Assembly (NCBI GenBank): GCA_001818315.1
Contig: MHKF01000012.1
Span: 251,149 to 315,148 of the forward strand
Source: Candidatus Kerfeldbacteria bacterium RIFCSPLOWO2_02_FULL_42_19
Lineage (GTDB): Bacteria > Patescibacteriota > Patescibacteriia > HO2-48-17
DNA length: 64,000 nucleotides
Reading direction: 5' to 3'
The notes under the pieces are model-generated. The model saw only the letters and a program-made list of their open reading frames with translations. It did no database searches and was not told where the DNA came from. Shown piece after piece: positions 1,133 through 54,858 of this stretch (its first letter is position 1; each line of letters opens with the position of its first letter). The position numbers were made by a program, and so were the translations under genes.

Positions 1133-1576
1133 TTATTTTGCTTCTAACATTTTTTTTAACACTGTTTGTACGAGTTTCCCATCAACGCGTCCTTTGACGT
1201 GAGACATCGTTGCTTTCATCAGGTGTCCGAAGTTTTTCTCTGAACTTTCCGTAATAATTTTCTGGATAATCTCCTGCAGTTCCTGTTCAGAAAGTTGTTT
1301 TGGTAGGTAGGTTTCTATTATAGTAAGTTCGCTCGATTCTTTTTTCGCAAGATCATGTCTTTGAGCTTGCTCATAAAGCGTCATGGCTTCCTTTCGTTTT
1401 TTTGCTTCTTTTTGGAGCGCTGTAAGCGTCAGTGCGTCGTCAGGTATTTTGATGCGCTTTTCAATCTCGAGATTTTTAAGCGTCGCTTTTATGGAACGCA
1501 AAACTAAGGCTCTTTCGGAGTCTTTTTGTTTTAACGCTTGAATAAGGTCCTTCGAAATACGCTCAACGAGTGACAT
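1133..1576 (-). CDS. GatB/YqeY domain protein
   Basis: 147 aa. The sequence pattern (LKQKDSERALVLRSIKA...ETYLPKQLSEQELQEII...MKATMSHVKGRVDGKLV) is typical of the YqeY/GatB C-terminal domain family. Confidence 0.8.
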   Translation of the reverse strand: MSLVERISKDLIQALKQKDSERALVLRSIKATLKNLEIEKRIKIPDDALTLTALQKEAKKRKEAMTLYEQAQRHDLAKKESSELTIIETYLPKQLSEQELQEIIQKIITESSEKNFGHLMKATMSHVKGRVDGKLVQTVLKKMLEAK

Positions 1577-1577
1577 T

Positions 1578-1856
1578 TTACTTTTTTAAGCGAATTTTTA
1601 TCATTGGCTTTTTTTTACTGTAACGTGAATCACTTACTTCTTCTATTTTGCCAATTTTTCGTAAGTACTCTATTTGCTCGCGAATACGAATGCGTCTCAA
1701 TGCACCAAGTCGAATTTTATTTTTATTCGGTTTTCGCTTTGCAAATTGATGTTCTTTCGTAAGATCGAGCACACGGGTACTTTGGACCTTGCGCGTGAAT
1801 CTGCGGATGAGACTTTCATTTGACTCTCCGTTTTTCTTTCTGAGATCAATCAGAAT
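1578..1856 (-). CDS. rpsU: 30S ribosomal protein S21
   Basis: S21 signature NESLIRRFTRKV...AKRKPNKNK with a basic C-terminus. The listed ORF (1578..1772) starts at an internal Met. The frame stays open upstream to an in-frame TGA, and an AAGGAGGTG Shine-Dalgarno lies 6 nt before an in-frame ATT, so a non-AUG start near 1856 is likely. Confidence 0.8.
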   Translation of the reverse strand: MLIDLRKKNGESNESLIRRFTRKVQSTRVLDLTKEHQFAKRKPNKNKIRLGALRRIRIREQIEYLRKIGKIEEVSDSRYSKKKPMIKIRLKK

Positions 1857-6159: not shown

Positions 6160-6420
6160 TTAAAGAGACTGTCGCTGAATATGCTCGCGTCTGTGAGAAA
6201 TGAATGTGCATCATAGCAAGAGAGGAAGAAAACTCTCCTTTCTCAGCACACTGTGCAGTGTCAGTGCTTCGAAAGGGAGAGTCTGCCTCCTCTTTATGTT
6301 TTGTTCATTGGGTCTGTCGCCGAATACGCTTTCGTCTGTGAAATGCTACAATTGTAACAGAAATGGTATTCGGCGACAGACCCTCATTGCACAAGAAATG
6401 GCATTCAGCGCCAGTCTCTT
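6160..6420. repeat. Composite nested palindromic repeat (hairpin family A with two outer arm pairs)
   Basis: Two arm pairs are present. The first is agactgtcgctgaatatgc paired with gcattcagcgccagtctct. The second is gggtctgtcgccgaatac paired with gtattcggcgacagaccc. A hairpin lies between them, with the shared core ctcagcacactgtgcagtgtcagtgcttcgaaag as its loop. Confidence 0.8.
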
Positions 6421-9848: not shown

Positions 9849-11354
9849 ATGCGATTGCATTCATCACAGGGATTTTTTGTTTTTGGACTTGGTTTCTGCT
9901 GTGGGGTATTTGTTGGTTTGTTATTCCCGAACAGCATTTGGATTTTTTCTTTAGCGATTGTTTTAGCGGTTTTTCTGGTTTGGTTATTTTGTGCTTTTTT
10001 GCGGAATAGAGCTATTTTTGATTTTTCACTTACAGTTTTTTTCTTTGCAAGCGGACTTTTGTGTGTCGGGATATTGTTAGGATTTTTTCCTGTTGTGTTG
10101 CGCGAGAAGTCTGCATTGCGTGCTGTTGAGATTTCGCCTACACATTCTTCTCTTTTTGAAGGAATCGTGACTGACGTTGATCAGCGCATCAATTATACGC
10201 GACTCGTTGTGCGTGTTTCTGGAGCTGTCGGTGACACATCCCTGTTGAATGAGAATGTACTCGTGACAGCCCCTTTGTATCCGGAATACAACTCTGGCGA
10301 TGTATTGCAACTGCAATGTCGTTTGCAGCAGCCTCAACCCATTGGTTTATTCCGTTATGATCGTTTTTTAGTATCGCAGGGTATTCAATGGACGTGTTAT
10401 TATCCGAACATTACTTGGCTAGGACGAACTTCTCTTGCTTGGTATCAGCATTTTGCGGTGTATAGAACACGTTTACTTCGTCGGATCAATAGCATGTTGT
10501 CGGAACCGTATGCGTCGCTGCTCGCAGGACTTCTTCTGGGCGTACGACGCGGTTTTCCACAAGAGCTTTCTCGTGTTTTTCAGAGAACCGGTACAAGTCA
10601 CGTACTTGCGATTTCGGGCTATAATGTTTCGCTGGTGAGTACGTTTTTACTCGTTTTCGCTATCCGGATTGGATTTTCTCGAAAAAAAGCTTTGATGATA
10701 GTGGGTTGCGGCATTGTTTTGTTTACTGTGTTTGTTGGTGCTTCGGCGTCGGTGATTCGTGCGAGTCTGATGGCACTTCTTATGCTACTCGCACGATATG
10801 TCGCTCGCCCTGCTGGTTCACGACAGATTTTTATGTTGGTTGCTTTTTTGGTTGCGTTGTTTCGTCCAGAATTATTTGTCTTTGATATTGGATTTCATCT
10901 TTCGTTTCTTGCCACATTAGGACTTGTATATCTTGCGCCTTTCTTTGAAAAAGTATTCCAAGGTTTGCCAGAGCAGTGGGGTTTGCGTGAGAATGCGGCG
11001 TCAACTCTTTCGGCGCTTGTTGCGACTCTTCCTCTCACTGTATTTCAGTTCCGCGGGGTTTCGCTGGTAGCGATGATCGCGAATATGGCCATACTTCCAG
11101 TGATTCCTTTCGTGATGCTGTTCGGAACACTGGAGGTCATTCTGAGTATACTTCCTCAATTCATCGCATTTATTTTTCTGTGGCCTACGTGGCTTTTGCT
11201 TACGTATGTATTATTTGTCTTGGAGCATCTTGCACGTTGGTCATGGGCGTATCGCGAAACGCCACAACTGCCGTGGCAGTTCATTGTTATTTGGTATGGT
11301 CTTTTGTGTTTTTGTTTTGTGCGCCGGTCACGATATTTTCAGCTTCATCACTAA
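9849..11354 (+). CDS. comEC: ComEC/Rec2 DNA internalisation channel (DUF4131 plus competence domain)
   Basis: Polytopic membrane protein with the ComEC core (LLAGLLLGVRRGFPQELSRVFQRTGTSHVLAISGYNVSLV). Confidence 0.85.
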   Translation: MRLHSSQGFFVFGLGFCCGVFVGLLFPNSIWIFSLAIVLAVFLVWLFCAFLRNRAIFDFSLTVFFFASGLLCVGILLGFFPVVLREKSALRAVEISPTHSSLFEGIVTDVDQRINYTRLVVRVSGAVGDTSLLNENVLVTAPLYPEYNSGDVLQLQCRLQQPQPIGLFRYDRFLVSQGIQWTCYYPNITWLGRTSLAWYQHFAVYRTRLLRRINSMLSEPYASLLAGLLLGVRRGFPQELSRVFQRTGTSHVLAISGYNVSLVSTFLLVFAIRIGFSRKKALMIVGCGIVLFTVFVGASASVIRASLMALLMLLARYVARPAGSRQIFMLVAFLVALFRPELFVFDIGFHLSFLATLGLVYLAPFFEKVFQGLPEQWGLRENAASTLSALVATLPLTVFQFRGVSLVAMIANMAILPVIPFVMLFGTLEVILSILPQFIAFIFLWPTWLLLTYVLFVLEHLARWSWAYRETPQLPWQFIVIWYGLLCFCFVRRSRYFQLHH

Positions 11355-11381: not shown

Positions 11382-12272
11382 GTGATGCGTGTTGTGCGAT
11401 ATAGTTTATTTGTTACCTTTCTCGCAGGCTTTTTTATTTCGTATGTTCTTTGGCATCAACGCGATATACTTTTGGTTTCTTTTTTCGATGTTGGTCAAGG
11501 AGACAGTACGTATATCCGCACTCCCTCCGGCGCTGATATTCTGATTGACGCTGGACCAGATTTGCTCACGCTCCATCGTTTGGGTCGACGTATGCCTTGG
11601 TATGATCGGCGTCTGGAACTTTTGGTACTTACTCATCCGGATAGTGATCACATCACCGCTGCTGTTGAAATTTTACGAAGGTATGAGGTGTTGCATATTT
11701 TGCTGCCAAACGTGGCGAATGATACGCCGGTATTTCACGCAATACACCAAGAGATTGAACAACAACACAGTGATGTACATTTCGCTGCTGTGGGTGAATC
11801 TTTGCAATTAGATAAAGTTCGCATTGACGTTTTACATCCGTCGTTCGCGGAGTATCCCAACAATGCTTCCATGCCTTTGGATGCTCGATTGCAACCTCCC
11901 ACGAACGATCTTTCGGTTGTGATGCTGCTTACGTATGGCGCGAATCGTTTTCTTTTTACTGGAGACGCAACTCGTAAACTAGAAGAAACAATGCTCAGAC
12001 GCGGCCTTGTAACACAGGTTCAATTTTTAAAAGTTGCCCATCACGGAAGTCGTACGTCAACGCATTGGGAATTTTTGGAGCAGGTTCGTCCGGAGATCGC
12101 GGTAATATCCGTCGGTCAAGAAAACCGCTTTGGACATCCACATCGCGAGGTTTTAGAACGACTCCAAAACATTGGCGCGACGATTCTCCGCACCGATATC
12201 TACGGAACTATTCATGCCGAGTGTGATCTACAACAATGTCGCTGGTCTTTTGAGAAGCACGATGCGCTATAG
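11382..12272 (+). CDS. MBL-fold metallo-hydrolase, ComEC C-terminal-domain-like, encoded as a separate gene
   Basis: LTHPDSDHITAA (the HxHxDH motif), VAHHGSRTS, and an N-terminal TM segment. It lies 27 nt after the comEC stop. Confidence 0.8.
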   Translation: MMRVVRYSLFVTFLAGFFISYVLWHQRDILLVSFFDVGQGDSTYIRTPSGADILIDAGPDLLTLHRLGRRMPWYDRRLELLVLTHPDSDHITAAVEILRRYEVLHILLPNVANDTPVFHAIHQEIEQQHSDVHFAAVGESLQLDKVRIDVLHPSFAEYPNNASMPLDARLQPPTNDLSVVMLLTYGANRFLFTGDATRKLEETMLRRGLVTQVQFLKVAHHGSRTSTHWEFLEQVRPEIAVISVGQENRFGHPHREVLERLQNIGATILRTDIYGTIHAECDLQQCRWSFEKHDAL

Positions 12273-13442
12273 ACCAAAATATTGTGCGAGTGTTTCGGCG
12301 TAAAGAATACTCCCTTGAATAAGTTCGTCGATCACAACATATTCATTGGGAACATGCGCTAATGCATCGTTGCCTGGATAATGAACTACGGACGGTATAC
12401 CCTTTTCGTAGAGATTTTTTGCCACGGTATTACCGCCGAATGTTTTGTACTTCATCGGTATGCGAAGTTTTTTTGCGGCTTTGTGAAAGCTTTGTGCGAT
12501 TTCTGAATCAAGACTTACAATATGTGGTTGAGTCTCGTGTTGTATTTGAAGTGTGAGTTTTGCGTATGGATAACGTTTTTTCACTTGCGTCACGATACGC
12601 TGGAGTGCCTTGAGTACATCGTGACTTGTAATGCCTTGGGGAAGACGAAAATCGATCACAGCTTCTGTTTTTGCGGGCACAACGTTTGCGGCAATACCGC
12701 CGGTGATCGTTCCAACGTTCATAGTCCATCCGTCAAACGCGGGATGAAACTTTTTCGGAAGCCGTAGTTCTTTGAGTGCATCTACAAAAGCGGCAAGCGG
12801 TTCAATAGCGTTTTTCCCCAGTGCAGGCGTTGATCCGTGTGCTTGCACGCCCGTGCTCGTTACTTGAATCCAGCAGACGCCTTTTTCCCCATAAATTGAG
12901 AGATTCATTTTCCCTCCATCGGGAATGATCGCAGCGTCAAAGCGCACTAACCCTTCGTTAAGTAAATAGATGATGCCAAGCGATGAACCCAATTCTTCAT
13001 CTGCAGCTGCGATGAGTATAATTCGTCCGTCGAAATGGAGGTGTTCTGCGATAAAAGCTTTGCATGCAGAATACGCACATGCAAATGAACCTTTGTCGTC
13101 CAGCGTTCCACGACCATAGATTCTGCCTTTCTTGAGAGTTGGCGTAAAAGGATCGGTATGCCACAACTCTCGGTCTCCTGGTGGAACCGTATCCATGTGA
13201 CTGACAAAAGCAATGGATTTTTTTCCTTTGCCGATAGTGCCGACAATATTGAGTCTGCCAGATTTTTTTTCGTGGTACGATACTTTCATTCCGAGTGCTT
13301 TCATCCTGCGCGTGATGATGTCTTTGACACGATATTCATTCCCCGGCGGATTCACAGTATTTTTTCGTACGAGTTCGCTTACGATGTGAATAATTTCTTT
13401 TCGGGCAATATGTTTGGCGTAGCGTGAAGATGTATACGACAT
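12267..13442 (-). CDS. M20-family metallopeptidase / deacylase (ArgE/DapE-like)
   Basis: HMDTVPPGD, GRGTLDDKGSFA and AAADEELGS metal-binding motifs. Confidence 0.85.
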   Translation of the reverse strand: MSYTSSRYAKHIARKEIIHIVSELVRKNTVNPPGNEYRVKDIITRRMKALGMKVSYHEKKSGRLNIVGTIGKGKKSIAFVSHMDTVPPGDRELWHTDPFTPTLKKGRIYGRGTLDDKGSFACAYSACKAFIAEHLHFDGRIILIAAADEELGSSLGIIYLLNEGLVRFDAAIIPDGGKMNLSIYGEKGVCWIQVTSTGVQAHGSTPALGKNAIEPLAAFVDALKELRLPKKFHPAFDGWTMNVGTITGGIAANVVPAKTEAVIDFRLPQGITSHDVLKALQRIVTQVKKRYPYAKLTLQIQHETQPHIVSLDSEIAQSFHKAAKKLRIPMKYKTFGGNTVAKNLYEKGIPSVVHYPGNDALAHVPNEYVVIDELIQGSILYAETLAQYFGL

Positions 13443-15495: not shown

Positions 15496-15657
15496 GTGAG
15501 AGGCAGGGATGCATATATTTTTTTCAAATGCTGTGATATCCAAACATGAACGATCTGTATTTGAAAGAGTTGCTGTAGTGCACACTTCCTTTCTGTATCT
15601 ACACAGTTGCTTATCACAACACATTTGAAAAAATTTATGCATCCCTGCCTCTCACGA
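15496..15657. repeat. Large intergenic palindrome with a 34-bp near-perfect stem and about 90-nt interior
   Basis: gtgagaggcagggatgcatatatttttttcaaatg pairs with catttgaaaaaatttatgcatccctgcctctcac. It sits between the dsbA-like and doxX-like genes. Confidence 0.8.
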
Positions 15658-18102: not shown

Positions 18103-18122
18103 TACTCTCTTCAACTTGTTCC

Positions 18123-18230
18123 CCGGGATAAATTTTTTTCAGAACACACGGAAAAGTGTCCTGCAAAAAATTATCCCAGGGAGCGAGTTGAATCGACTTG
18201 CATACTTTCATAGCTAAGGAAAAGTGTCCT
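18123..18230. repeat. Small palindromic element (family B: inverted-repeat arms around the TTCAGAACAC..GAAAAGTGTCC core) plus a partial direct duplicate
   Basis: ccccgggataaattttt pairs with aaaaaattatcccaggg, flanking cagaacacacggaaaagtgtcctgc. ggaaaagtgtcctgcaaaa repeats at 18209. Confidence 0.7.
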
Positions 18231-18311
18231 GCAAAACAATACCCCGCAGGAGAGAGCGAGAGTTTCATCTTCACTCGAGTGCACTGTTTCCTAAATTTTT
18301 AACCTCATTTT

Positions 18312-20670: not shown

Positions 20671-21522
20671 ATGCTCCAAAAGATTGTGCAAATCGACAAA
20701 CTTGAGAGACTTGCGAACACGATTCGGCAAGATGTGATGCGTATGCTTGTTGCCGCTGGTTCAGGGCATTCTGCCGGGCCGCTTGGTATGGCCGATGTAT
20801 TTACGGCGCTGTATTTTACTATTCTCAATCACGACCCCAAACGGCCGAATTGGCCGGATCGCGATCGTTTGTATTTGTGTTGTGGCCATATCTGTCCTGT
20901 GCGTTATGCGGCGATGCTGCGTGCAGGCTATGGACCTGTTTCTGAAGGAAAAACATTGCGGAAACTTGGTTCGCGTCTGCAAGGGCATCCGGCGCTCCAT
21001 CACTGGGACGCTGTGGAATCTTCGTCTGGCCCTCTCGGCCAAGGCATTTCTATAGCTGTTGGCGCGGCGCTCGCTGCAAAACTTGACCACAAGAAACACT
21101 TTGTGTTTTGTGTGATGAGCGATGGGGAGCTTCAAGAAGGTCAAGTTTGGGAAGCTTATATGTTTGCTGGAAAACACAAACTTGGGAATCTTGTGACGAT
21201 TATTGATCGAAACAATATTCAGATTGATGGATTTACGGAAGAGGTTATGCCGCTCGAGCCGCTTGCAGATAAATTTCGAGCCTTTAACTGGCATGTGTTG
21301 GAAATCGACGGGAATAATATGGAGCAGATTCTGGATGCATGTAATCTCGGAAAAACGATTTATGAAAAACCAACAGTGATTATTGCGCATACGGTTCCGG
21401 GGAAAGGTGTTGATTTTATGGAAGCGGATTTTGCTTGGCACGGCAAACCTCCGAAGCCCGATGAAGCGCGTGTAGCTCTACGGGAATTACGGACACTGCG
21501 AGGGCGTATTCAACCTGAATAG
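20671..21522 (+). CDS. tktA: Transketolase, N-terminal (TPP pyrophosphate-binding) subunit
   Basis: GSGHSAGPLGMADVFTALYF, GHPA, SSGPLGQGISIAVG and DGELQEGQVWEA. Confidence 0.9.
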   Translation: MLQKIVQIDKLERLANTIRQDVMRMLVAAGSGHSAGPLGMADVFTALYFTILNHDPKRPNWPDRDRLYLCCGHICPVRYAAMLRAGYGPVSEGKTLRKLGSRLQGHPALHHWDAVESSSGPLGQGISIAVGAALAAKLDHKKHFVFCVMSDGELQEGQVWEAYMFAGKHKLGNLVTIIDRNNIQIDGFTEEVMPLEPLADKFRAFNWHVLEIDGNNMEQILDACNLGKTIYEKPTVIIAHTVPGKGVDFMEADFAWHGKPPKPDEARVALRELRTLRGRIQPE

Positions 21523-21554
21523 CATTATAGTATTGAAAATCGCAGTATAAGAGT

Positions 21555-21700
21555 TTGGTGAATATCGCTTTTTCGGAACCGGCGCTCGGTCGCTTCCGGC
21601 GAGCGACCGGCGCCTGCGCCTCTCAGCGCGCCGGCCCTACGGGACCAATCCCGGCGCGCTTCCGAGAGCTTCCTCAAAAGCAATATTCACCAAACTCTAA
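21555..21700. repeat. GC-rich structured element bounded by perfect 19-bp terminal inverted repeats, in the tktN-tktC spacer
   Basis: gtttggtgaatatcgcttt and its reverse complement aaagcaatattcaccaaac sit at the two ends. The interior contains two GC hairpins. The first is ggcgc.cggtcgc.ttccggcga.gcgaccg.gcgcc. The second is agcgcgccgg, a 16-nt loop, then ccggcgcgct. The interior is about 70% GC against about 40% for the genome. Confidence 0.8.
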
Positions 21701-21718
21701 AATGATATTCACACTCTT

Positions 21719-22768
21719 ATGCAACTCGTTGATTCCGCGCATCTTTCTCCAAAACTTTTTCGTAAGACTATTACCCTCGCACCTACTCGAGATGGATATG
21801 GACAAGGTCTTGTTGAAGTAGGGAAGCAAAATCCTAACGTTGTTGTTTTGTGTTGTGATTTAACCGAATCCACACGTTCCAATCTTTTTGCCGAGAAGTT
21901 TCCTGATCGGTTTATAGAAGTCGGCGTTGCCGAACAAAACATGGCTGGGATTGCCGCTGGGCTTGCTCTTCACGGTAAAGTTCCTTTTATGTCGAGTTAT
22001 GCTGTGTTTAGCCCCGGGAGAAATTGGGATCAATGTCGCGTGAGTATTTGTTATAATTCGGCGAATGTGAAAATCGCTGGCGCGCACGCCGGCATTTCGG
22101 TGGGTCCTGATGGAGCGACGCATCAAGCGCTTGAAGATCTTGCAATTACGCGCGTGCTTCCCGGCATGACCGTTGTTGTGCCCTGCGATGCGATTGAAGC
22201 GCAAAAGGCGACTGTTGCGGCTGCCAAGATGCGCGGGCCGGTGTACCTCCGTTTTGCGCGCGAGAAAACGCCTGTGTTTACTACAGCAAAAACGCCGTTT
22301 CGCATTGGCCGAGTCGCATTACTGACTGCTGGTGTTGACGTGAGTATTATCGCGTGCGGATCTCTTGTGTATCAGTCGCTGCTTGCTGCAAAGGAACTTG
22401 CGAAACAAAAAATGAGTGCGCAGGTGATTAACTGTCATACACTGAAACCTCTGGATGGCAACAATCTTCTGCGTTTTGTGAAAGCGACAGGTGCAATCGT
22501 CACGGTGGAAGAACATCAGATTCACGGCGGCTTGCGCGGCGCAATTGCAGAATATTTTTCTGCTGTGTACCCTGTGCCGATTCGCTCTGTTGGCATGCCG
22601 GATCGTTTCGGTGAATCGGGTGAGCCCGAGGAGCTCTTGGAAAAATACGGCATGACTGTTGAACGTATTGTGGAAGAGTCTTTGCGGGCAATACGCATGA
22701 AATCACTTAAGCATAAGAGGAATGACACATTTGCGCGAAGTTCGAGGAAAAAACGAAGCGCAGAATAA
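21719..22768 (+). CDS. tktB: Transketolase, C-terminal (pyrimidine-binding and C-terminal domain) subunit
   Basis: TRDGYGQGLVE, EVGVAEQNMAGIAAGLALHG and the transketolase C-terminal domain. Confidence 0.9.
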   Translation: MQLVDSAHLSPKLFRKTITLAPTRDGYGQGLVEVGKQNPNVVVLCCDLTESTRSNLFAEKFPDRFIEVGVAEQNMAGIAAGLALHGKVPFMSSYAVFSPGRNWDQCRVSICYNSANVKIAGAHAGISVGPDGATHQALEDLAITRVLPGMTVVVPCDAIEAQKATVAAAKMRGPVYLRFAREKTPVFTTAKTPFRIGRVALLTAGVDVSIIACGSLVYQSLLAAKELAKQKMSAQVINCHTLKPLDGNNLLRFVKATGAIVTVEEHQIHGGLRGAIAEYFSAVYPVPIRSVGMPDRFGESGEPEELLEKYGMTVERIVEESLRAIRMKSLKHKRNDTFARSSRKKRSAE

Positions 22769-25024: not shown

Positions 25025-25046
25025 TAGAATCCTACAATAACGCTTC

Positions 25047-25107
25047 TTCTTGAGGATATATTGCTTTTCAGAACACCCAGAAAAGTGTTCGTTCAAAGCA
25101 ATATATC
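25047..25107. repeat. Small palindromic element, family B
   Basis: cttgaggatatattgcttt pairs with aaagcaatatatcctcgag, flanking cagaacacccagaaaagtgttcgttc. The core is shared with the 18123 copy, and the arm ends are related to the 21555 element. Confidence 0.7.
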
Positions 25108-25132
25108 CTCGAGAAGACACTCTTTTTTTGGT

Positions 25133-25936: not shown

Positions 25937-25940
25937 AGAG

Positions 25941-26018
25941 CAAAGAGGAGGAAGACTCTACTTTCGCAGCACTGACAAGGCATTATGTGCTGCGAAAGTA
26001 GAGTCTTCCTCCTCTTTT
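25941..26018. repeat. Family A hairpin with a perfect 32-bp stem, immediately 3' of lgt (likely terminator)
   Basis: caaagaggaggaagactctactttcgcagcac, loop tgacaaggcattat, then the exact reverse complement. A T-run follows. Confidence 0.85.
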
Positions 26019-26291
26019 TTCTATGATCAAAATGTATTTTTCACAGGCGAAAGCGCATTCGGCGGCAGTTTCATAAAGGTATTTTTTATTTAGCCATTTT
26101 TTTTATTTTCAACTTGATCATTCCGCGTCAGCTTGCTACGCGGAGGTTCATTTGGAGTAAGTTTGACATTTTCTTTATTTTGTGATATAATTTTATTCCA
26201 AATTCAGGATTGTGAAAGTGCGTCGTGCGCTCTAAGCAATCGCTGAAGGAACCTTAAAAATTCAACAAATGAGCGACCAGCGTTTGTAAAG

Positions 26292-27293: not shown

Positions 27294-27457
27294 GTGATGT
27301 CCCTCGATTCTCATACGGCGTCGTAGTGCCCGGCGCCACGATTTTACACCTTCGTTTAGCCCTTTATTAGAACCCTCCAAGCTTTCGAGCGCGGAGGGTT
27401 CTTTGTTTTCTTATAGCACAGTTATCAAAAATGAGTTTCGACAATACACAGATAAGA

Positions 27458-27533
27458 GATAAGAGAGGAGAAGATGATAAGCTTTCGAAGCACTAACACT
27501 GCACTGTGTGCTAAGAAAGGTTATCATCTTCTC
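27458..27533. repeat. Family A hairpin in reverse orientation, 23-bp perfect stem
   Basis: gataagagaggagaagatgataa, a 30-nt loop containing gcactgtgtgctaagaaag (the core in reverse complement), then ttatcatcttctcctctcttatc. Confidence 0.85.
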
Positions 27534-27796
27534 CTCTCTTATCTCGTTTCGATTGTATTGCGCTGCGCCTGTGATTCATCAACTCGTGGTATAATGGGTC
27601 TGTTGCCGAATACCATTTCTGTTGCAATCGTAGCATTTCGGCCAGAATCGCTTCAAAATTTTTCGGCTTATATTCCATATAAACCTCAAAATTTATTCAG
27701 CGATTCTGTCACGAAATTCTACGATTTCACAGGCGAAAGCGCATTCGGCGACAGACCCATAATAGAAATCGATCGTTTACTCTTAAAATTTTCAAC

Positions 27797-34004: not shown

Positions 34005-34257
34005 AGTTTTCTCCTTAGTTAGTGCACTTTCGTCATTGCACTGATTGATTGTGATGTCGAAGTACGATCTCTACAAACAAAAATTCTGGCTTGTATGCCA
34101 GAATCTCGGTATCATGTTTTGATTATTTTTATGCATGATTATTCCTCCATATTGTTCTTCGAGATTTTGACATACGAGTATCGCTCCGCGTAAAAATCGG
34201 AGATCCATTGTTTCCAGACGATATATATTGTCGTGCGAGGGTCAACATCACCTTATT

Positions 34258-34305
34258 TTAACTTGATAATTCCGCGCTAGCTTGATGCGCCGGTTTCATT
34301 CTCAG
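34258..34305 (+). repeat. Conserved about 45-nt motif (family C), copy 2 of 3
   Basis: ttttaacttgataattccgcgctagcttgatgcgccggtttcatt. Compare the copies at 26108 and 53088. Confidence 0.7.
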
Positions 34306-34358
34306 AAGAACTTACTCTATCACACCGAATTTTTTTGTCAAATTATGATGAGACTGAT

Positions 34359-34523
34359 GGGCTGTCGCTATAAATACCGTTTCCTGTGCAACGCGCAAAA
34401 GAAAAGAGGAGGAAGACGAGACTTTCTCAGCACACTGTGCAGTTGTTAGTGCTTCGAAAGCTCTTGTCTTCCTCCTCTTTTCTTTATACATGAAATAAGA
34501 AACGGTATTTATGGCGACAGTCC
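34359..34523. repeat. Composite family A element: outer 25-bp inverted-repeat arms plus inner 16-bp-stem hairpin
   Basis: gggctgtcgctataaataccgtttcc pairs with gaaacggtatttatggcgacagtcc. The inner hairpin aaaagaggaggaagac...gtcttcctcctctttt carries the ctcagcacactgtgcag core. Confidence 0.85.
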
Positions 34524-38049: not shown

Positions 38050-39636
38050 TCATGATAACTCGTCGCGTTTTTCCTTCATGTAAGAGAACCATTGTTCGAG
38101 AACTTCGATAATGAGTTGGAACGGTGCTTCGATAATGATGTCGAGTATAAAGAGAAAAATATTGATGCGGGAGAATTTTGTACTGATCCAGTTGCCGACT
38201 CGTAAAAACGGGGTTGTTAGGAAGCCTACGAGAAGTGTAATAATATTTTCGCGTCTTTCAATGAGACTCACTTCTTTGACATGTTGACGTAATCGAAATC
38301 CCAAAAAGCTTGCAAGACACAGGAAAAGGAGAAAAAGCGCGCCGCTGAAGGTATTAAATCCAAAGGAAGAAAGCACGTAAATCATTCCCCCAAACGATAC
38401 GGCGTAGGTGAGTGTATAGAGCGTTGTAAATATAATACTAAAAAAGGTTTTTCGTTTGAGTTTTTTTGGAGGCGTTAGTGCAAGTGCATCGTTATAAATC
38501 ATTTTAGGGAGCACCTCCTGAATTTTTTTGAGGTTTTCTTTTTTCGGCATGCGAATCGTGATGCCGAGGATAAACATGAGGATCGGCGGAAACATAATGT
38601 TGATTTCGAGTGGAATGAGCGCGAGCTCGCCGTGTACATACCGATCGTAAGGAATTTCGAGCAATAACGCGATCAACATTTTTGTGAAAAAGATATAGAT
38701 GATACTTCGTGCGACGCCACGAGTGATTTTTCTGCGAATGATTTTAGCGCGTCGTTTGTACGCCGCTTCTATTTCTTCTTTGAGCGTCTGTTTATCGTTT
38801 AAAAGATTTGCAAAATCTTCTTCATGTTTTTCGAGAAGATCCCGAAGGAGCAAAAAAAGTACGGTATATTTTTTTGTCCACCGGTATAATGTGTCTGTAC
38901 GCTGATGTTTAAAATGCGCATCGAGAGCGTTACGAATATTTTCAAAACATGTTGCCATTTTTTCTATCGTATCATTACTCGCATGTTTCCAATGTGGTAC
39001 GTATCTTTCGAGTAGGCGATGGGATATGAGAATTTTATCGGCTTTCAAGAGGGATTGTTCGATTGCAATGAAAAGTTGAATACTTAATTCTTCTTTCGGG
39101 ATATTTTTTAATTCTTCCGGAAGATTCTTTTCGAAAATTTCGTACATGTATGTAGCAAATGCTTCATCCTGGTGAGTATCCGCAAGTTGGGATTCGATTT
39201 CACTTGCTGCAATGCCTATTGTCCATTTAAAGGCTTTTTGACGCTTTTGAAGCCCGTCGTTTTTTTCAATAGTATTGAGAAGCCTTTGATATTTGTGGAT
39301 CGTTTTAGCAATGATCGGAATCATTTTGTCCGAGAGGGTTCGATTTGGGAGGTATCGCGCTCGAATGAGTTCTAATATCAATGATTCAGCGACTTCTTCA
39401 CTTTTTTTCTGGAAGAAGAGGCGCCTTGAAAGGATGCGGGCAATGGCATTTTTACGCAATAAGTGTTCTTCGCTATATTCCAAAGCATTACGGATTCTTT
39501 CGTAAAAGAAAGATGCCTTACTGAGAATTTCATTTACAGCGATCGTCGTGCCGCCTTTTTCACCTTTCACGAGGAGTTCGGTCGGTTGCGCAAAGTATTT
39601 TTGATAGAGTTTTCGGATGATAGCGTCGTTTCCCAT
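38050..39636 (-). CDS. Hypothetical membrane protein (cytoplasmic helical N-domain plus about 6 TM C-domain)
   Basis: 528-aa ORF with no motif I recognise. Confidence 0.5.
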   Translation of the reverse strand: MGNDAIIRKLYQKYFAQPTELLVKGEKGGTTIAVNEILSKASFFYERIRNALEYSEEHLLRKNAIARILSRRLFFQKKSEEVAESLILELIRARYLPNRTLSDKMIPIIAKTIHKYQRLLNTIEKNDGLQKRQKAFKWTIGIAASEIESQLADTHQDEAFATYMYEIFEKNLPEELKNIPKEELSIQLFIAIEQSLLKADKILISHRLLERYVPHWKHASNDTIEKMATCFENIRNALDAHFKHQRTDTLYRWTKKYTVLFLLLRDLLEKHEEDFANLLNDKQTLKEEIEAAYKRRAKIIRRKITRGVARSIIYIFFTKMLIALLLEIPYDRYVHGELALIPLEINIMFPPILMFILGITIRMPKKENLKKIQEVLPKMIYNDALALTPPKKLKRKTFFSIIFTTLYTLTYAVSFGGMIYVLSSFGFNTFSGALFLLFLCLASFLGFRLRQHVKEVSLIERRENIITLLVGFLTTPFLRVGNWISTKFSRINIFLFILDIIIEAPFQLIIEVLEQWFSYMKEKRDELS

Positions 39637-39699
39637 AACTCTATTATATCGTAAAAGACTTTCGCGTCACAAATTAAGGTCATGCCGTTGAACAATAGC

Positions 39700-39885
39700 G
39701 GGACTGTCGTTGAATGTGCTTTTGTCTGTGAAAAAGCATTTGCACAAAGTACAAAGAGGAGCAAGACTCTCCTTTCTCAGCACACTGTGCACTGTCAGTG
39801 TTTCGAAAGCGAGAGTCTTGCTCCTCTTTGTACTTTGAATCACATTCATTGACTCACAGACAAAAGCGCATTCAACGACAGTCCC
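39700..39885. repeat. Composite family A element: 31-bp outer inverted-repeat arms plus perfect 27-bp-stem hairpin
   Basis: gggactgtcgttgaatgtgcttttgtctgtga pairs with tcacagacaaaagcgcattcaacgacagtccc. The inner hairpin is caaagtacaaagaggagcaagactctc and its exact reverse complement, with the ctcagcacactgtgcactgtcagtgtttcgaaag core. Confidence 0.9.
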
Positions 39886-39988
39886 ACAATGGTTCAGATT
39901 ATTTTTTACGAAGTTCCTACTGACAAGATCACGTCGTCACGGTATAATAGATTTGCGCGTGTTCGATGAAAATTTCAGAAACAAATAT

Positions 39989-40618
39989 ATGAAAAAAATT
40001 CTTTATTGCGTTCGGCACGGGCAAAGCCTTGATGAACAGAACAGTTGGTTTACCGGATTTACCGACACGTCTTTAACTCCACGCGGCTTGAACGAAATGC
40101 ATCACGTCGGTACACGATTTCATGTCACACCGGTGGATGTGATCTATGCTTCAGTTCAAAACCGCGCACTTCAATCCGCAGAAATTCTTCAACGTTATCT
40201 TCACTGTGATATCCATGCTTTGCGAGAACTTACAGAGTGGAATCGTGAGGGTATTTTGAGTGGACTGACGTATTCCCAAGTTGCTCGATTATACCCCGAG
40301 GAGTTACGAAACCTTACGTATTTCCGTTCTCATGCTCTGTACGGTGAATCCTATAATGATTTTCTTGCACGTGTTCTTTCGGTGTTTGAAGTGATATTGC
40401 AGAGTTCGTACCGACGTATTATGATTGTAACTCACGGCAATGTGATTGGCATTTGGCTTCGGGAAGTGTATCGGATTATTCCCTATACTTTCCATCTTGC
40501 GTACCCAGATCATATTGTTGCAGTGCGTCTGAATCATAAGCACAAAATTGAATCTCTTCAGAGTGCTTTTCTTCATCATAATCTCTATGCATCCAAAGCG
40601 CTGGGAAAAAATTCTTGA
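39989..40618 (+). CDS. Histidine phosphatase (phosphoglycerate mutase-like) family protein
   Basis: The RHG motif (CVRHGQS), followed by TPRG, and THGNVI. Confidence 0.8.
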   Translation: MKKILYCVRHGQSLDEQNSWFTGFTDTSLTPRGLNEMHHVGTRFHVTPVDVIYASVQNRALQSAEILQRYLHCDIHALRELTEWNREGILSGLTYSQVARLYPEELRNLTYFRSHALYGESYNDFLARVLSVFEVILQSSYRRIMIVTHGNVIGIWLREVYRIIPYTFHLAYPDHIVAVRLNHKHKIESLQSAFLHHNLYASKALGKNS

Positions 40619-50061: not shown

Positions 50062-50090
50062 CATATTTTTTGATCTCGGTATAATTCTTT
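50057..50090 (+). promoter_or_regulatory. Promoter (TTGACA-16-TATAAT) and leader of the rplJL operon
   Basis: ttgacatattttttgatctcggtataat, then an about 120-nt leader before rplJ. Confidence 0.55.
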
Positions 50091-50210
50091 TAAGCCGTAG
50101 AATACAGGTGTTCTCGTATTGCTTTTGCAAACCGGAACTTAATTGCCTGTCGAGGTAGATAAGATGATTGGTGTTTTATTTTATTCTGCGGTAGGTAACG
50201 CAGTTTTTTT

Positions 50211-50735
50211 ATGGCTAAAACTCGTACAGAAAAAGAAAATATTGTTCAGTCTTTAGGTAAACTCTTCAAGCAGAACGCAGGGATTGTGTTTGTTGCTTAT
50301 TCCCGAGTTTCGGTAAAGGATATGCTTGCGCTTCGTAGGGCCGTGAAACAGAGTCAATGCGGTGTGTCCGCAGTAAAGAAAACACTACTTACGCGTGCCT
50401 TAGTAATTGCTGGAGATACGTATGATGTCGGCACATTAAACGGTTCTGTCTTTGTGGGCTATGGCAGCGATCAAGTCGCTCTTGCGAAAGTGATCGATCG
50501 ATTTCGCAAAGAGCACGGAGAAAATATAAAGATGCTTGGCGGTATACTTGACCACACAGCGGTTTCGAGCGAGCAGATCATGTCACTTGCTCAACTTCCT
50601 TCACGAATGGAACTGACGGCACAATTCGTTGGAACTCTTGCAGCTCCGATTGTTGGGTTTGCACGAGTATTATCGGGAACAATGCAAAGTTTTGTGTACG
50701 CCCTGTCTGCTTTGCAGAAGAAAAAGGCTTTATGA
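50211..50735 (+). CDS. rplJ: 50S ribosomal protein L10
   Basis: KTRTEKENIVQSLGKLFKQNAGIVFVAYSRVSVKDMLALRRAV. Confidence 0.9.
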   Translation: MAKTRTEKENIVQSLGKLFKQNAGIVFVAYSRVSVKDMLALRRAVKQSQCGVSAVKKTLLTRALVIAGDTYDVGTLNGSVFVGYGSDQVALAKVIDRFRKEHGENIKMLGGILDHTAVSSEQIMSLAQLPSRMELTAQFVGTLAAPIVGFARVLSGTMQSFVYALSALQKKKAL

Positions 50736-51277: not shown

Positions 51278-51402
51278 TTTTTGTTCGTTGGTGTATAAAG
51301 TGAGAGGGGGAGGATGATATTTTTGGAGCACACTGTGCATTCTTAGTGCTCTGAAAATATCCGCTGCCACCTCTCTTTTATTTTTTCAATATTGCATTTC
51401 CT

Positions 51403-53079
51403 TTAAAGGATCTCCTGCTGATAGCAGGGATTGCAGAAAATTTTTTCCGGACGCTCGGGAGCATATGTCGTTTCGAATTCCGTGGGACAGCGATTTTCGC
51501 TATGTTCTGAATGTTTGAGATCGCACTGACATTGACGGTGATAGAGTTGCAGCGGGTAATGACGCTTCCACCGCTTTTGAAAACGGCAAGCGGGACACAG
51601 GAGTGGAAGCGGTAAGTGCAGCAGTTTCAGCAGTTTCAATTCAATACTTTGGATGCGATAATTTTTTTTGCATTCAACGCAGGCGAGGATTTTTTCGAGA
51701 ATTATTTCTGCAACTTTTTCAATCTGTGAGTGGATGTCGGTAGCCCGCAACGTTTCTTTTCCATACAAACCTGCGGATTCATCCTGCCAGCGCCAACCTC
51801 GTACAAGCACTTTTTTCTTTGTCAGAGGAAAATAATCCTGCGACATCGTTTCGTTGTAGGTATGAGGACTATATTGTACTGGAAGAAATTCTCCCCATTC
51901 ACCGTCGTCGCGCATTTTGTTAATAATCTTTTTCCGCAGATCGTGATATTTCGTCTCTGAATACTGTTGATTGAGAATGCAAAATCGTTTTCCGCGGAGA
52001 CCCACGCATCCAAAGAGGTGATCCGAATTTTCACAAAAGAAGCAATACGCGATGAACATGCAGTCAGGACTCGTGTAAGAACAGGCGGCGCTGTTGAATC
52101 GAATCCCAGAATTTACTTCGTAACTGTTTTGTGAACCTAGAGTATGGTTCACGCGATAACAGTCCTTTGTTTTGAGCATGCGGAAACATTCACCGCAATT
52201 TTCATTTTCTATCATGTTAAAGCCCAAACGGATGTTTTTTGAAGATTCGATTGCCTCGCCGACGACGTTTTCGCTCTTTCGAATGATCGCGAATTCAACG
52301 GGAAACTTCAGAGAGTGTTGCGCAAAACGTTTTCGGTGTTCTTCGAAACTCTCGCGGTTTTTAAGTGCTTCCGTAAGACGCTTTCGGTATTCCACTTCAG
52401 GCAGCGACTCGTTAAACCAGTAAAATTTTTTGTGTTTGAGATTCACGCATCCGAAACAATTCTGACAGTCAGTAAGGTCACGGCCAAGGTAACATTCGTT
52501 GCAGTTATAAGCTCGTGTGAGGAAGGCGGAGCGATAGGAATAATATGTATAAACGCAATCATAAACGAGTTCACTGTGATACACTTGTAATCCATCCGCA
52601 CAGTCTTTTGACCAGTCTATGTTGCGGGAATATACAATGTTTTCAAGTTCTAAACCGCTGAATACAAGATAACAGTCCTTGCCGTCGAGGACGTAATTGA
52701 CGTATTCTGAATTGACGTTTTCTCCTGGTTGCCAGAGATTATAGTGTGGCACATGTGTGAGTAGTTGGTGGAGTTGTTCGAAAAATGGTTTTTGCGGATC
52801 ATATGTTTGCGCATATTTCATCGGATCCCATTGGTCAGAATACCAACATGGTCGGCAATATACGTGCGCGTATGAAGCGGGCGAATACATTGCAATGATA
52901 TTTTTTTTACACAATTCGCATTGACGACGATAGAGTGATGCTTCGTTGCGATATGTCATCCGACGCCGGTGAGCATCGGTCGCGCACAGTGTTGGTTCCG
53001 GAAGTTCAAGCGCGTTGAGTATTTTTTTGTCCTCAGTAGCAATACTGAAAGAAGTTTTGCATTCACGACACGTAGGCAT
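51403..53079 (-). CDS. Cysteine-rich protein of unrecognised family, paralog B (556 aa)
   Basis: About 40 Cys, mostly in CxxC pairs: CRECK, CELCKK, CRPCW, CNECYLGRDLTDCQNCFGC, CGEC, CVEC..CPACR, QCQC and CNPC. It has no signal peptide. It aligns along its whole length with 53188..54858. Confidence 0.6.
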   Translation of the reverse strand: MPTCRECKTSFSIATEDKKILNALELPEPTLCATDAHRRRMTYRNEASLYRRQCELCKKNIIAMYSPASYAHVYCRPCWYSDQWDPMKYAQTYDPQKPFFEQLHQLLTHVPHYNLWQPGENVNSEYVNYVLDGKDCYLVFSGLELENIVYSRNIDWSKDCADGLQVYHSELVYDCVYTYYSYRSAFLTRAYNCNECYLGRDLTDCQNCFGCVNLKHKKFYWFNESLPEVEYRKRLTEALKNRESFEEHRKRFAQHSLKFPVEFAIIRKSENVVGEAIESSKNIRLGFNMIENENCGECFRMLKTKDCYRVNHTLGSQNSYEVNSGIRFNSAACSYTSPDCMFIAYCFFCENSDHLFGCVGLRGKRFCILNQQYSETKYHDLRKKIINKMRDDGEWGEFLPVQYSPHTYNETMSQDYFPLTKKKVLVRGWRWQDESAGLYGKETLRATDIHSQIEKVAEIILEKILACVECKKNYRIQSIELKLLKLLHLPLPLLCPACRFQKRWKRHYPLQLYHRQCQCDLKHSEHSENRCPTEFETTYAPERPEKIFCNPCYQQEIL

Positions 53080-53187: not shown

Positions 53188-54858
53188 TTAAACTATCTCC
53201 TGTTGATAACATAGGTTGCAGAAAACTTTTTCCGGACGCTCGGGGGCATATGTCGTTTCGAATTCTGTGGGACAGCGTTTGTTGGTGTGCGCTGGGTGCT
53301 TCCGAGAGCAGTCGCACTGCCTTTGATATAGCCGCGGAAAAGGGATGCGCGACAGACGCTCGTTCAAGCGACATTCCGGACAGATCTTCGGCAGAGGGAG
53401 TGACAACGTACGTAACACCTGCAACTCCTTTGGCTGAATGCGGTAGTTAAGATCGCACGTCGCACAGACAAGAATAGCTTTGGTAATATCTGACGAGGTT
53501 TGTTTGATCGAAGCGGGTATGTGTTCAATCGAGAGTGTTTCTTTGCCGCGAATTCCGCCATGATTGTTTTCAAATTGCCAACCCTTGGCAAGCACCTCTT
53601 CGCGTGTTAGGGGAAATAACTCAATCGCAGCCGAATCGTTGTAGGCATGCGGGCTGTATTTCACCGGTGGAAATTCACCCCATTCATCGCATTGTTGCAT
53701 GTTGGTAACAATCTGCTGACGTAACCGCTCATACTCCTCTTGAGTGTATTGTTTATTGAGAACGCAGAATTTTTTCTTTCTTAAGCCGACGCAGCCGAAA
53801 ATGTTATCACAATTGGCACAGAAGAAAGAATAGGCCATGAACGAACAACCCTCAGCCATCATGGAACAGAGTGTATAAGACGTGGTCAAACCTCCGCCGA
53901 TGTATTCGTACATGTTTTCAATAAAACCAGCATTACTCACACGGTACGCATTTTTAGTTTGATAGGTAATCCGATAGGCATCTCCTATATTTTCAGAATC
54001 CTGTAATCCGAAGGAATAACGCACATTTACGGCATTAAAGATCCCATCACCCGAGCAATTTTCGCTTTTGCGGATCACGGCATACTCGACTAGAAATTGT
54101 TTGGCATGTTCGGAGAAACGCTGTCGGTGCTGTTGAATGCTTGTCCGGTCCTTCAACGCTTCTTTCAGCCGGCGCTTGTATTTTGTTTCCGAAAGCGCTT
54201 CGTTATACCAATAAAAACGTTTGTGCTTCAGATTGACGCAACCGAAGCAGTCATGGCAGTCCGCCAAATCCCTGCCGAAATAGCAATCTGAGCAGCGCTC
54301 GCATCGTGTTAAGAAAGCGCTCTTGAAACTTTCGCGTGCGTAAACACAATCATATAAAAGTTCTGAACTGTGAATGAATATATTATCGACGCAGTCTCGA
54401 CACTGATCATTATTTTTGTTATAGACACAGCCTTCGGATTTGAGACAGGAAAAGGAGAGGTAACAATCCTTGCTGTTCCATGTGAAATTTGTATAAATAG
54501 AATTTACGACGTTCCCTATTTGAAATACGTTAAAGTTGGGCACCTGTTTCATCAGATCCAACCATTGATCAAAAAACGGCCGATTCGGATTATAGTCACG
54601 GCCGTATTGCAGAGGATCCCATTTGTCCGAATACCAACAATCGCGGCAGTACACATGCGCATACGAAGCTGGCGAATACATGGCAAGCAGAGATTTACCG
54701 CACATCTCGCACTGGCGACGGTTAAAGATGTCGTTCATTGCGATAGGCGAGCCGCCGCTGTAGTGAGTGTTCAAAACACAGCTTGGGTTCCGGCACCTGC
54801 AAAAGAGAAAGAATTTTTTTGTCTTCTGAATGGACGGAGAAAGATATGTTACATTCAC
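53188..54858 (-). CDS. Cysteine-rich protein of unrecognised family, paralog A (556 aa)
   Basis: Shares long identical blocks with paralog B: YSPASYAHVYCR, DCYL.FS, SELLYDCVY, SAFLTR, DCxxCFGCVNLKHK.FYW.NE, VIRKSEN, FGCVGLR.K.FC.LN.QY, DEWGEF.PV.YSPH.YN and RCPTEFETTYAPERPEK.FCN.CYQQEI. Confidence 0.6.
   Translation of the reverse strand: MNVTYLSPSIQKTKKFFLFCRCRNPSCVLNTHYSGGSPIAMNDIFNRRQCEMCGKSLLAMYSPASYAHVYCRDCWYSDKWDPLQYGRDYNPNRPFFDQWLDLMKQVPNFNVFQIGNVVNSIYTNFTWNSKDCYLSFSCLKSEGCVYNKNNDQCRDCVDNIFIHSSELLYDCVYARESFKSAFLTRCERCSDCYFGRDLADCHDCFGCVNLKHKRFYWYNEALSETKYKRRLKEALKDRTSIQQHRQRFSEHAKQFLVEYAVIRKSENCSGDGIFNAVNVRYSFGLQDSENIGDAYRITYQTKNAYRVSNAGFIENMYEYIGGGLTTSYTLCSMMAEGCSFMAYSFFCANCDNIFGCVGLRKKKFCVLNKQYTQEEYERLRQQIVTNMQQCDEWGEFPPVKYSPHAYNDSAAIELFPLTREEVLAKGWQFENNHGGIRGKETLSIEHIPASIKQTSSDITKAILVCATCDLNYRIQPKELQVLRTLSLPLPKICPECRLNERLSRIPFPRLYQRQCDCSRKHPAHTNKRCPTEFETTYAPERPEKVFCNLCYQQEIV

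Follow-up and report, generated by a model that had tools for sequence, protein, structure and literature searches.

A 143-bp insert separates the two transketolase subunit genes tktN and tktC, folds into a three-way junction and has a structural homologue at an unrelated locus of a groundwater Patescibacteria genome, with which it shares its fold and a few unpaired nucleotides, and neither the sequence of its stems nor that of its outermost ends. Judged from sequence, the element belongs to a small, sparse and uncatalogued family of structured, probably mobile elements with at least one other member. The reading that we favour, tentatively, is that of a self-contained structured cassette of about 149 bp, drawn from a sparse family that spreads horizontally and co-transcribed with the operon in which it now lies. 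In what follows, the window is the whole 64-kb stretch of DNA that was analysed.

A folded insert in the transketolase operon

The element sits within the 196-nt tktN-tktC spacer of an operon with the gene order FBPase-DeoC-rpiB-rpe-tktN-tktC (Table 1). The TktN protein is identical to one that a source names as the transketolase of Candidatus Kerfeldbacteria bacterium RIFCSPHIGHO2_02_FULL_42_14, and the N-terminus of TktC aligns with the MKLHP..AKL start of its relatives. Independent assemblies from ENA, NCBI and Logan contain the gene on 23 contigs, and the 196-nt spacer was identical in all 10 of the loci fetched from them, so that it is not an assembly artefact. The population is essentially clonal (0-1 SNP per 6.8 kb in all fetched loci but one), and polymorphism thus carries no information.

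The terminal repeat GTTTGGTGAATATCGCTTT occupies 21553-21571 and its partner 21677-21695, the two pairing at 18 of 19 positions with C21566 opposite A21682 as the sole mismatch. The element therefore measures 143 bp (21553-21695), or 149 bp (21550-21698) when the full 29-nt arms are counted. The original prediction had described perfect 19-bp terminal inverted repeats around a 146-bp element; the inverted repeat is present, but it is imperfect, shifted in position and delimits a shorter stretch. That the insert is GC-rich and unlike its host was, however, borne out. The GC content is 62.9% over the 143 bp and 74.0% in the 104-nt core, compared with a mean of 43.8% for the window, and the best 60-nt stretch of the element, at 81.7%, is the maximum of the whole window, where the next-richest island reaches 70%. 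The core holds repeated short GC motifs, namely ACCGGCGC, CGCTTCCG and a CCGGCG.GC variant, each present twice. Additional short inverted matches in the surroundings of the element (I4, I5 and I9) were no better than chance pairs of that region and were set aside.

The plus strand of the element has a minimum free energy of -89 kcal/mol, against -50 +/- 3.8 kcal/mol in dinucleotide shuffles (z = -10.4; 0/200 shuffles equal), and the minus strand folds about as well, at -96 kcal/mol (z = -8.9). The fold is a Y-shaped three-way junction in which a long closing stem, P1, a near-perfect duplex of 23 bp (23-29 bp), carries two hairpin arms, P2 and P3. Both of the GC hairpins foreseen within the element, of 5+7 bp and of 10 bp, were recovered by the MFE fold and by the inverted-repeat listing; the first consists of GGCGC/GCGCC together with CGGTCGCTT/GAGCGACCG, and the second of AGCGCGCCGG/CCGGCGCGCT, lengthened by CCC/GGG and TCTC/GAGA. 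In fold density the spacer ranks among the top two intergenic regions of the window.

Table 1. Genes, spacers and parts of the folded element, in window coordinates (L033 is the homologous locus described in the text)
Feature	Position	Strand	Basis and remarks
tktN, transketolase N-terminal subunit	20671..21522	+	ORF; Pfam Transketolase_N / DXP_synthase_N / E1_dh; stop TAG 21520-21522
AT-rich spacer, tktN stop to element	21523..21549	+	27 nt; outside the fold
P1 5' arm (closing stem)	21550..21578	+	29-nt arms, 90% complementarity; L033 alignment; outer 16 nt AGAGTTTGGTGAATAT particular to the window copy, inner CGCTTTTTCGGAA conserved in L033
Junction J1/2	21579..21580	+	CC; same in L033
P2 hairpin	21581..21614	+	MFE fold; L033 comparison; 5 bp, bulged U at 21586, then 9 bp including the conserved U.G closing pair
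P2 loop	21596..21600		CCGGC; with the closing pair, UCCRGCG
Junction J2/3	21615..21617	+	TGC; L033 counterpart U only
P3 arm	21618..21669	+	inverted-repeat listing, MFE fold, L033 alignment; at the base, GC / bulged C / TCTC pairs with GAGAGC
P3 10-bp helix	21625..21634 with 21651..21660		6/10 pairs changed on both sides relative to L033
P3 tip	21635..21643		CCC-TAC-GGG
P3 3' bulge	21644..21650		ACCAATC, 7 nt, conserved
P3 3' internal loop	21661..21663		TCC, conserved
P1 3' arm	21670..21698	+	TTCCTCAAAAGCAATATTCACCAAACTCT; inner TTCCTCAAAAGC conserved in L033
AT-rich spacer, element to tktC start codon	21699..21718	+	20 nt; without Shine-Dalgarno motif
tktC, transketolase C-terminal subunit	21719..22768	+	ORF; Pfam Transket_pyr / Transketolase_C

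The element was missing from the orthologous site in all five of the closest relatives. In the closest of these, which has the same gene order and a TktN protein 80% identical (L011), tktN and tktC overlap by 4 nt (ATGA), and in relatives with TktN identities of 75%, 73% and 72% the two genes are separated by spacers of 57, 19 and 26 nt, respectively, that hold no such element. The fifth relative (L012; TktN 74% identical) carries a different palindrome of about 120 nt in its tktN-tktC spacer, with a paralogue in its rpe-tktN spacer. Given the overlap in the closest relative and the short spacers in three others, a lineage-specific gain is the parsimonious reading, and the element is most likely a lineage-specific insertion between tktN and tktC. 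The view that an insert lies inside an operon spacer was thus upheld by the comparison with relatives.

Neither a sigma-70-like promoter nor a hairpin followed by a T-run as in a terminator was found in the flanks of the element. An intrinsic terminator was considered for the element itself and rejected, there being no terminator-like site at this position, where P1 is followed by CTCTAAAATGATATTC. A TPP riboswitch, which could have been envisaged from the use of TPP by transketolase, was likewise rejected, since RF00059 gave no match at E <= 10 and P1 is too stable to switch. The bare AU-rich leader of tktC is normal in this genome, as an SD-like motif precedes only 8 of the 54 ORFs of the window. 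TATAAT-like hexamers lie a few bases 5' of the start codon in several window genes (e.g. 12267-13442 minus, 38050-39636 minus and 39953-40618), and these hexamers together with the scarcity of SD motifs suggest that leaderless mRNAs may be frequent in the host.

A structural homologue from Hainich groundwater

A covariance model (R1), built from the element sequence alone and its MFE structure, was used to search 752 kb of DNA comprising the window and 83 CPR genome loci. Besides the element it matched L033 1525-1668 at 33.6 bits with E = 4.6e-5, a value that is rough on account of a shortened calibration, and the next best matches reached 16 and 12 bits. L033 is a locus of a distant Patescibacteria MAG from Hainich groundwater (GCA_964361345.1) whose TktN is 60% identical to that of the window, and the matching element is situated between two divergent genes about 4.4 kb from tktN, at a locus unrelated to the tktN-tktC spacer. 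Folded by itself it adopts a Y shape like that of the window copy (z = -8.0). Thus the element is not a single copy with no homologues, the finding that had been named as speaking against the original prediction.

In a structural alignment of window 21560-21688 with L033 1525-1668, which was fitted by hand to the structure with N in place of gaps and with a 22-nt tip hairpin of L033 left out, 96.9% of cells pair. Both sides were changed with pairing kept in 20 of 49 base pairs, while slid partners gave 0-2 and none of 500 shuffles reached 20; this count comes from one pairwise comparison between two confident members. In P2 the change affected both sides of 9 of the 14 pairs around a conserved loop. 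Identity was higher among unpaired columns (18/26; 69%) than among paired ones (48/95; 51%). The two copies have in common the inner part of P1 (UUUUUSRGAA / UUCYUCAAAA), the junction CC, the bulged U in P2, the P2 loop UCCRGCG with its U.G closing pair, the 7-nt P3 3' bulge ACCAAKC, the 3-nt 3' internal loop UCC, and GARAGC-UUC leading into P1 (UCCGARAGCUUC), and the features that define the two-member family are found in both. Colinear blocks are equally spaced, as with GGACCAA followed after 12 nt by TCCGARAGCTTC. The outer part of P1, in contrast, is wholly different, being AGAGTTTGGTGAATAT in the window and CCGGCTTGC in L033.

This comparison also bears on the origin of the GC-rich interior, which had been thought of as a captured cargo. 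L033 holds P2, P3 and the inner closing stem as one unit with a GC content of 49%, compared with 74% in the window core. Since these parts were inherited together, the interior does not appear to be cargo; by comparison of the two sequences it is the conserved body of the family, and the high GC is peculiar to the window copy.

Relatives of the DUF192 gene that adjoins the L033 copy (68% and 60% identical) do not have the element beside them, and with the tkt operons of relatives described above, which also lack it, this indicates that both copies are lineage-specific and placed at unrelated loci. The L033 copy is flanked by two divergent promoter-like sites, at 1489-1517 (minus) and 1713-1738 (plus). 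The leftward gene is faced by a TTGACA-17-TATACT site. A distance of 7 nt separates a TATACT from the ATG of the DUF192 gene, whose mRNA would thus be leaderless, and the minus strand carries a weaker TTGTGT-17-TATACA directed into the element.

A second model, R2, made from both sequences and run on 796 kb, yielded no further true member. A candidate third member, L012 2984-3140, folds by MFE into the same Y topology (z = -5.7), carries CCAGCGC as its hairpin-1 loop, and scored 16.2 bits with R1 but only 8.4 bits with R2. A palindrome of 72% GC at L022 3208-3278 has arms, GCGCTCTTTTCGGAG / CTCCGAAAAGAGCGC, similar to the family's inner P1; it scored about 29 bits on both strands with R2, and its interior is short and unrelated. 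The elements E1 and E2 of L012 were also considered as homologues and rejected, the similarity being not significant and both representing a separate, unbranched family.

Copy number and other structured spacers

The original prediction had proposed a search for other copies of the terminal repeats and an Rfam run on homologous spacers; no other copy and no Rfam match to the element were found in the DNA searched. No second copy of the terminal repeats or of the core was present in about 82 kb of host DNA, made up of the 64-kb window and about 18 kb adjoining it. For an assumed genome of about 1.2 Mb, more than some 45 copies would make such an absence unlikely (p < 0.05), and smaller numbers are compatible with it. 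Short-word blastn, run with the element and with its core on the window and on every fetched locus, gave no second copy, and about 25 kb of the L033 genome likewise held no other. A 21-mer from hairpin 1, searched in a genome collection that did not include the host species, gave four chance matches only, in genomes of 60-67% GC and with no extended similarity. A scan of metagenome contigs for TktN relatives returned only loci with 67% identity or less. Two stem 21-mers and two family-motif patterns gave zero or chance matches in viral contigs, none of them fitting the model, and blastn of both family members against plasmids and phages gave no match. When other copies were sought as spurious ORF calls, the plus-frame translation matched nothing and the minus frame only an unrelated repeat protein. 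Rfam 15 at the gathering threshold, applied to the whole window, had no match at the element; a permissive scan of 21450-21800 gave noise only (11.8 and 11.4 bits), and the L033 copy had no match either. No tRNA or tmRNA was detected in the window by ARAGORN, and full-text literature searches found no description of the motif. The only Rfam match of the window was a ribosomal protein L10 leader (RF00557, 51.5 bits) at 50077-50218.

Structured spacers are not rare in such genomes. Among 436 co-directional junctions in the fetched loci there were 134 spacers of 60-300 nt, and 43 of these folded at z <= -3.5. The possibility that the tktN-tktC junction is a hotspot for hairpins was rejected, since about 12-17% of lineages carry a structured spacer, with unrelated hairpins, at that junction, a share not clearly above the roughly 10% of co-directional junctions in general. 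The window itself holds several other palindromes. Nested ones of about 100-200 nt, family A, occur in 5-6 copies in the 64 kb (6198-6420, 25937-26150, 27451-27760, 34256-34523 and 39689-39900, also 51300-51341), with a conserved centre, CAGCACACTGTGCAGTGTCAGTGCT, and arms that vary between copies yet stay complementary; the spacer 39637-39952 has the highest fold density in the window. A further palindrome at 15496-15655 has 28-nt arms of 96% complementarity around 104 AT-rich nt and lies in a 614-nt spacer. Small palindromes, family B, are found at 18121-18182, 18218-18250 and 25045-25117. Elsewhere in the window two adjacent paralogous genes on the minus strand (51403-53079 and 53188-54858), encoding proteins of about 557 aa and 71-78% identical in their DNA repeats, have no Pfam domain, as is also the case for their 752-aa neighbour at 54902-57160.

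Other CPR genomes gave comparable cases. In L012, from a Kerfeldbacteria-like genome, paralogous palindromes of about 120 nt flank tktN (9860-9978 and 10855-10975; score 84 against 17 +/- 3 in shuffles), and in their central hairpin the loop CTTTCA is conserved while the stem differs in a compensatory manner, with CCGTAT/ATACGG in one and CTGTAC/GTACAG in the other. In three other CPR genomes, related elements lie in the tktN-tktC spacer (L042 6838-6982, L045 4842-4973 and L057 6844-6940) and follow the pattern CATTCCGAG...GAGGAATC...GATCCCTCC...CGGGATG; they resemble a widespread repeat that is often mis-called as small ORFs.

A proposed mobile cassette or a possible structured RNA

In our favoured though tentative reading, the cassette landed between tktN and tktC in this Kerfeldbacteria lineage as one member of a family that would spread horizontally as a non-autonomous unit. 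From the pattern of conservation, the fold and a few unpaired bases, it may be envisaged that a trans-acting protein recognises the folded single strand, as DNA or as RNA. The window copy would be a recent arrival from a more GC-rich donor, which would account for a 74% GC core held within host-like AT-rich arms. With no promoter or terminator beside it, the element would be transcribed together with the tkt operon. As it folds on itself at -89 kcal/mol, the 143 extra bases would be looped out of the message, leaving the tktN stop and the tktC start each in some 20-27 nt of unstructured AU-rich RNA, and this self-folding is the likely reason that the insert is tolerated. RNase III may plausibly act on the P1 duplex, and a cut there could separate the cistrons or release the core. 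Several observations stand against this reading of a mobile cassette. It has two confident members only, with no second copy in the host or L033 DNA searched, and no transposase, integrase or HUH enzyme, nor a Y1 transposase domain, was found among 40 window ORFs by Pfam. The lack of a target-site duplication and the unconserved termini indicate no known transposition chemistry. A single homologue in the roughly 750 kb of CPR DNA searched elsewhere would fit an approximately single-copy RNA gene per genome equally well, and the conserved plus-strand U.G pair at the P2 loop hints at RNA.

That hint belongs to the main rival explanation, which we consider possible though rather unlikely, namely that the element functions as a structured RNA. 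It could be cut out of the tkt transcript as a small RNA, with RNase III acting at P1 as one possibility, or work in cis by setting how stable or how well translated tktN and tktC are relative to each other. The conserved loops would then be contact sites for protein or RNA, and the family would consist of RNA genes of low copy number that change their genomic surroundings. Stems that covary around conserved unpaired nucleotides are what one classically expects of a structured RNA, the element is among the strongest folds and is the highest GC island of the window, and one extra member in about 750 kb of other CPR DNA approximates to one copy per genome of about 1 Mb. The pairing itself is less accommodating. 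There is one G.U pair per copy among roughly 50, the remainder being almost all Watson-Crick; G.U makes up about 3% of pair cells with C.A about equal, unlike typical RNAs, and each of the four mismatches in the helices reads C.A on the plus strand and would read G.U on the minus strand. The only conserved wobble closes the P2 loop and reads U.G on the plus strand, which is the operon's sense strand. An assignment of strand from the G.U and C.A counts was rejected, the numbers being too small and too symmetric. Taken as sequence evidence, the pairing resembles DNA-level or very strict pairing more than that of a typical RNA. The equal folding of both strands, the absence of an own promoter or terminator and of any Rfam match, and the lack of the element at the orthologous site in the tkt operons of the five closest relatives and beside the DUF192 gene in relatives of L033 also weigh against a functional RNA, as does the position of the L033 copy, which has a divergent promoter on either side and no obvious source of plus-strand transcription.

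The mobile cassette and the functional RNA are not mutually exclusive. A reading that joins them, bolder and to our minds unlikely, would have an undescribed class of promoter-less CPR cassettes landing in any transcribed spacer, with the terminal duplex insulating each from the host mRNA and RNase III freeing a stable, protein-binding three-way-junction RNA of about 100 nt; such a cassette would be a mobile small-RNA gene that borrows the transcription of its host.

The original prediction had also placed the element in a wider family of mobile palindromes related to family B, with the central loop of a B palindrome having captured or evolved a GC-rich cargo. That a structured element of a wider family is present was supported by the homologue in L033, but the kinship with family B is marginal and this origin now seems improbable. 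The pattern TTTYCRGAAC is common to the element and both B elements (as TTTTCRGAAC), with 4 matches in the window against 1.05 expected, and the element also shares the 11-mer AAAAGCAATAT with the B element at 25045 (B25045). The arm and core pattern of family B is TTTTCAGAACAC-loop-GTGTYC...CAAA, and an arm alignment with the element scored 22 against 14.4 +/- 2.4 in shuffles, a score that 11 of 500 shuffles also reached. Against a captured cargo are the inheritance in L033 of the inner stem and both interior hairpins as one unit, the failure of R2 to match the B elements (18121-18182 and 25045-25117) at E <= 10, the outer arms of the B copies, which are unlike those of the element, and the nature of the B elements as simple hairpins. 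B25045 lies just 3' of a 2-Hacid_dh gene, and the run TTTTTTT behind it gives it the look of an intrinsic terminator; such an element is missing from that position in relatives.

It is more doubtful still that the palindrome arose in situ, by local inverted duplication with GC-biased repair, and that the match in L033 is coincidental. The repeated short GC motifs of the core, the 43 structured spacers among 436 co-directional CPR junctions and the rough E-values would be in keeping with such an origin. However, only L033 among those structured spacers stood out at 33.6 bits, the colinear blocks are at equal spacing in both copies, and each copy has the bulged U, the junction CC and the loop CCRGC at equivalent places in the fold. 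Least credible is a classical MITE, derived by deletion from an insertion sequence of the DDE-transposase type and moved in trans, for while terminal inverted repeats of 19-29 nt and a self-folding, intergenic body of about 150 bp would suit it, the flanks show no target-site duplication in the window (GTATA/AGAG...CTCT/AAAAT) and no direct repeat in L033 (AACT/CCGG...TCCG/CTTT), the outermost arms are not common to the two copies, the stems differ by compensatory changes and not by random decay, and no other copy and no transposase were found in the window.

Among known systems, the ERIC or IRU sequences of enterobacteria are imperfect palindromes of about 127 bp in transcribed intergenic regions. 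The element is like them in its size, as a long imperfect palindrome in an operon spacer that would be co-transcribed as a stable mRNA stem-loop, and in a presence that varies among related genomes. ERIC elements, however, are conserved in sequence up to their ends, number tens to hundreds and form an unbranched hairpin, whereas the element has unconserved ends, a three-way junction in which only the loops are conserved, and no second copy in 82 kb. REP and BIME sequences are linked to RAYT (IS200/IS605-like Y1) transposases. They too are extragenic palindromes recognised in hairpin form, have strictly Watson-Crick stems, lie between operon genes and can stabilise upstream mRNA. REPs are by comparison single hairpins of 20-40 nt with a conserved 5' tetranucleotide, hundreds of copies and a RAYT gene, and an assignment to REP or BIME was rejected for a three-way junction of 143-149 nt with no Y1 domain among the 40 window ORFs. 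A survey of REPs is given in PMC12306157. The GC clusters of yeast mitochondrial genomes are also short GC-rich, hairpin-forming and apparently mobile inserts in the intergenic spacers of an AT-rich genome, but they are of 30-60 bp, multi-copy, eukaryotic-organellar and unrelated in sequence, and in the present family high GC is not a trait; PMC4478555 deals with such clusters. Orphan structured RNA motifs have been sought as GC-rich intergenic regions of AT-rich genomes (PMC11109978). Like them, the element is long, intergenic and richer in GC than its genome, and its stems covary around conserved loops. It differs in having two members and essentially Watson-Crick pairing only, where such motifs normally have many representatives and G.U-tolerant covariation on one strand. 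With integron attC sites it would share the conservation of structure over sequence, recognition of a folded single strand through unpaired bases and a variable apical part. An attC site ends in RYYYAAC...GTTRRRY and the element in GTTTGGT...ACCAAAC, the opposite arrangement, and with no integrase or cassette array nearby and none among the scanned ORFs this assignment was rejected as well.

To our knowledge, the non-coding elements of CPR/Patescibacteria genomes are almost uncharted. The motif described here is a concrete three-way junction with defined loops, found at two groundwater sites (an RIFCSP-named MAG and the Hainich MAG) and absent from Rfam. Should no further members be found, it would be one more strongly folding spacer, as present at about 10% of co-directional junctions in these genomes. 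If the family is widespread, it would represent either a new class of structured RNA or a new structure-defined mobile element with unconserved ends, and either outcome, if true, would inform how tiny symbiotic genomes exchange and tolerate DNA. A gene pair that is translationally coupled, as judged by the ATGA overlap in the closest relative, can be split by a 143-bp insert.
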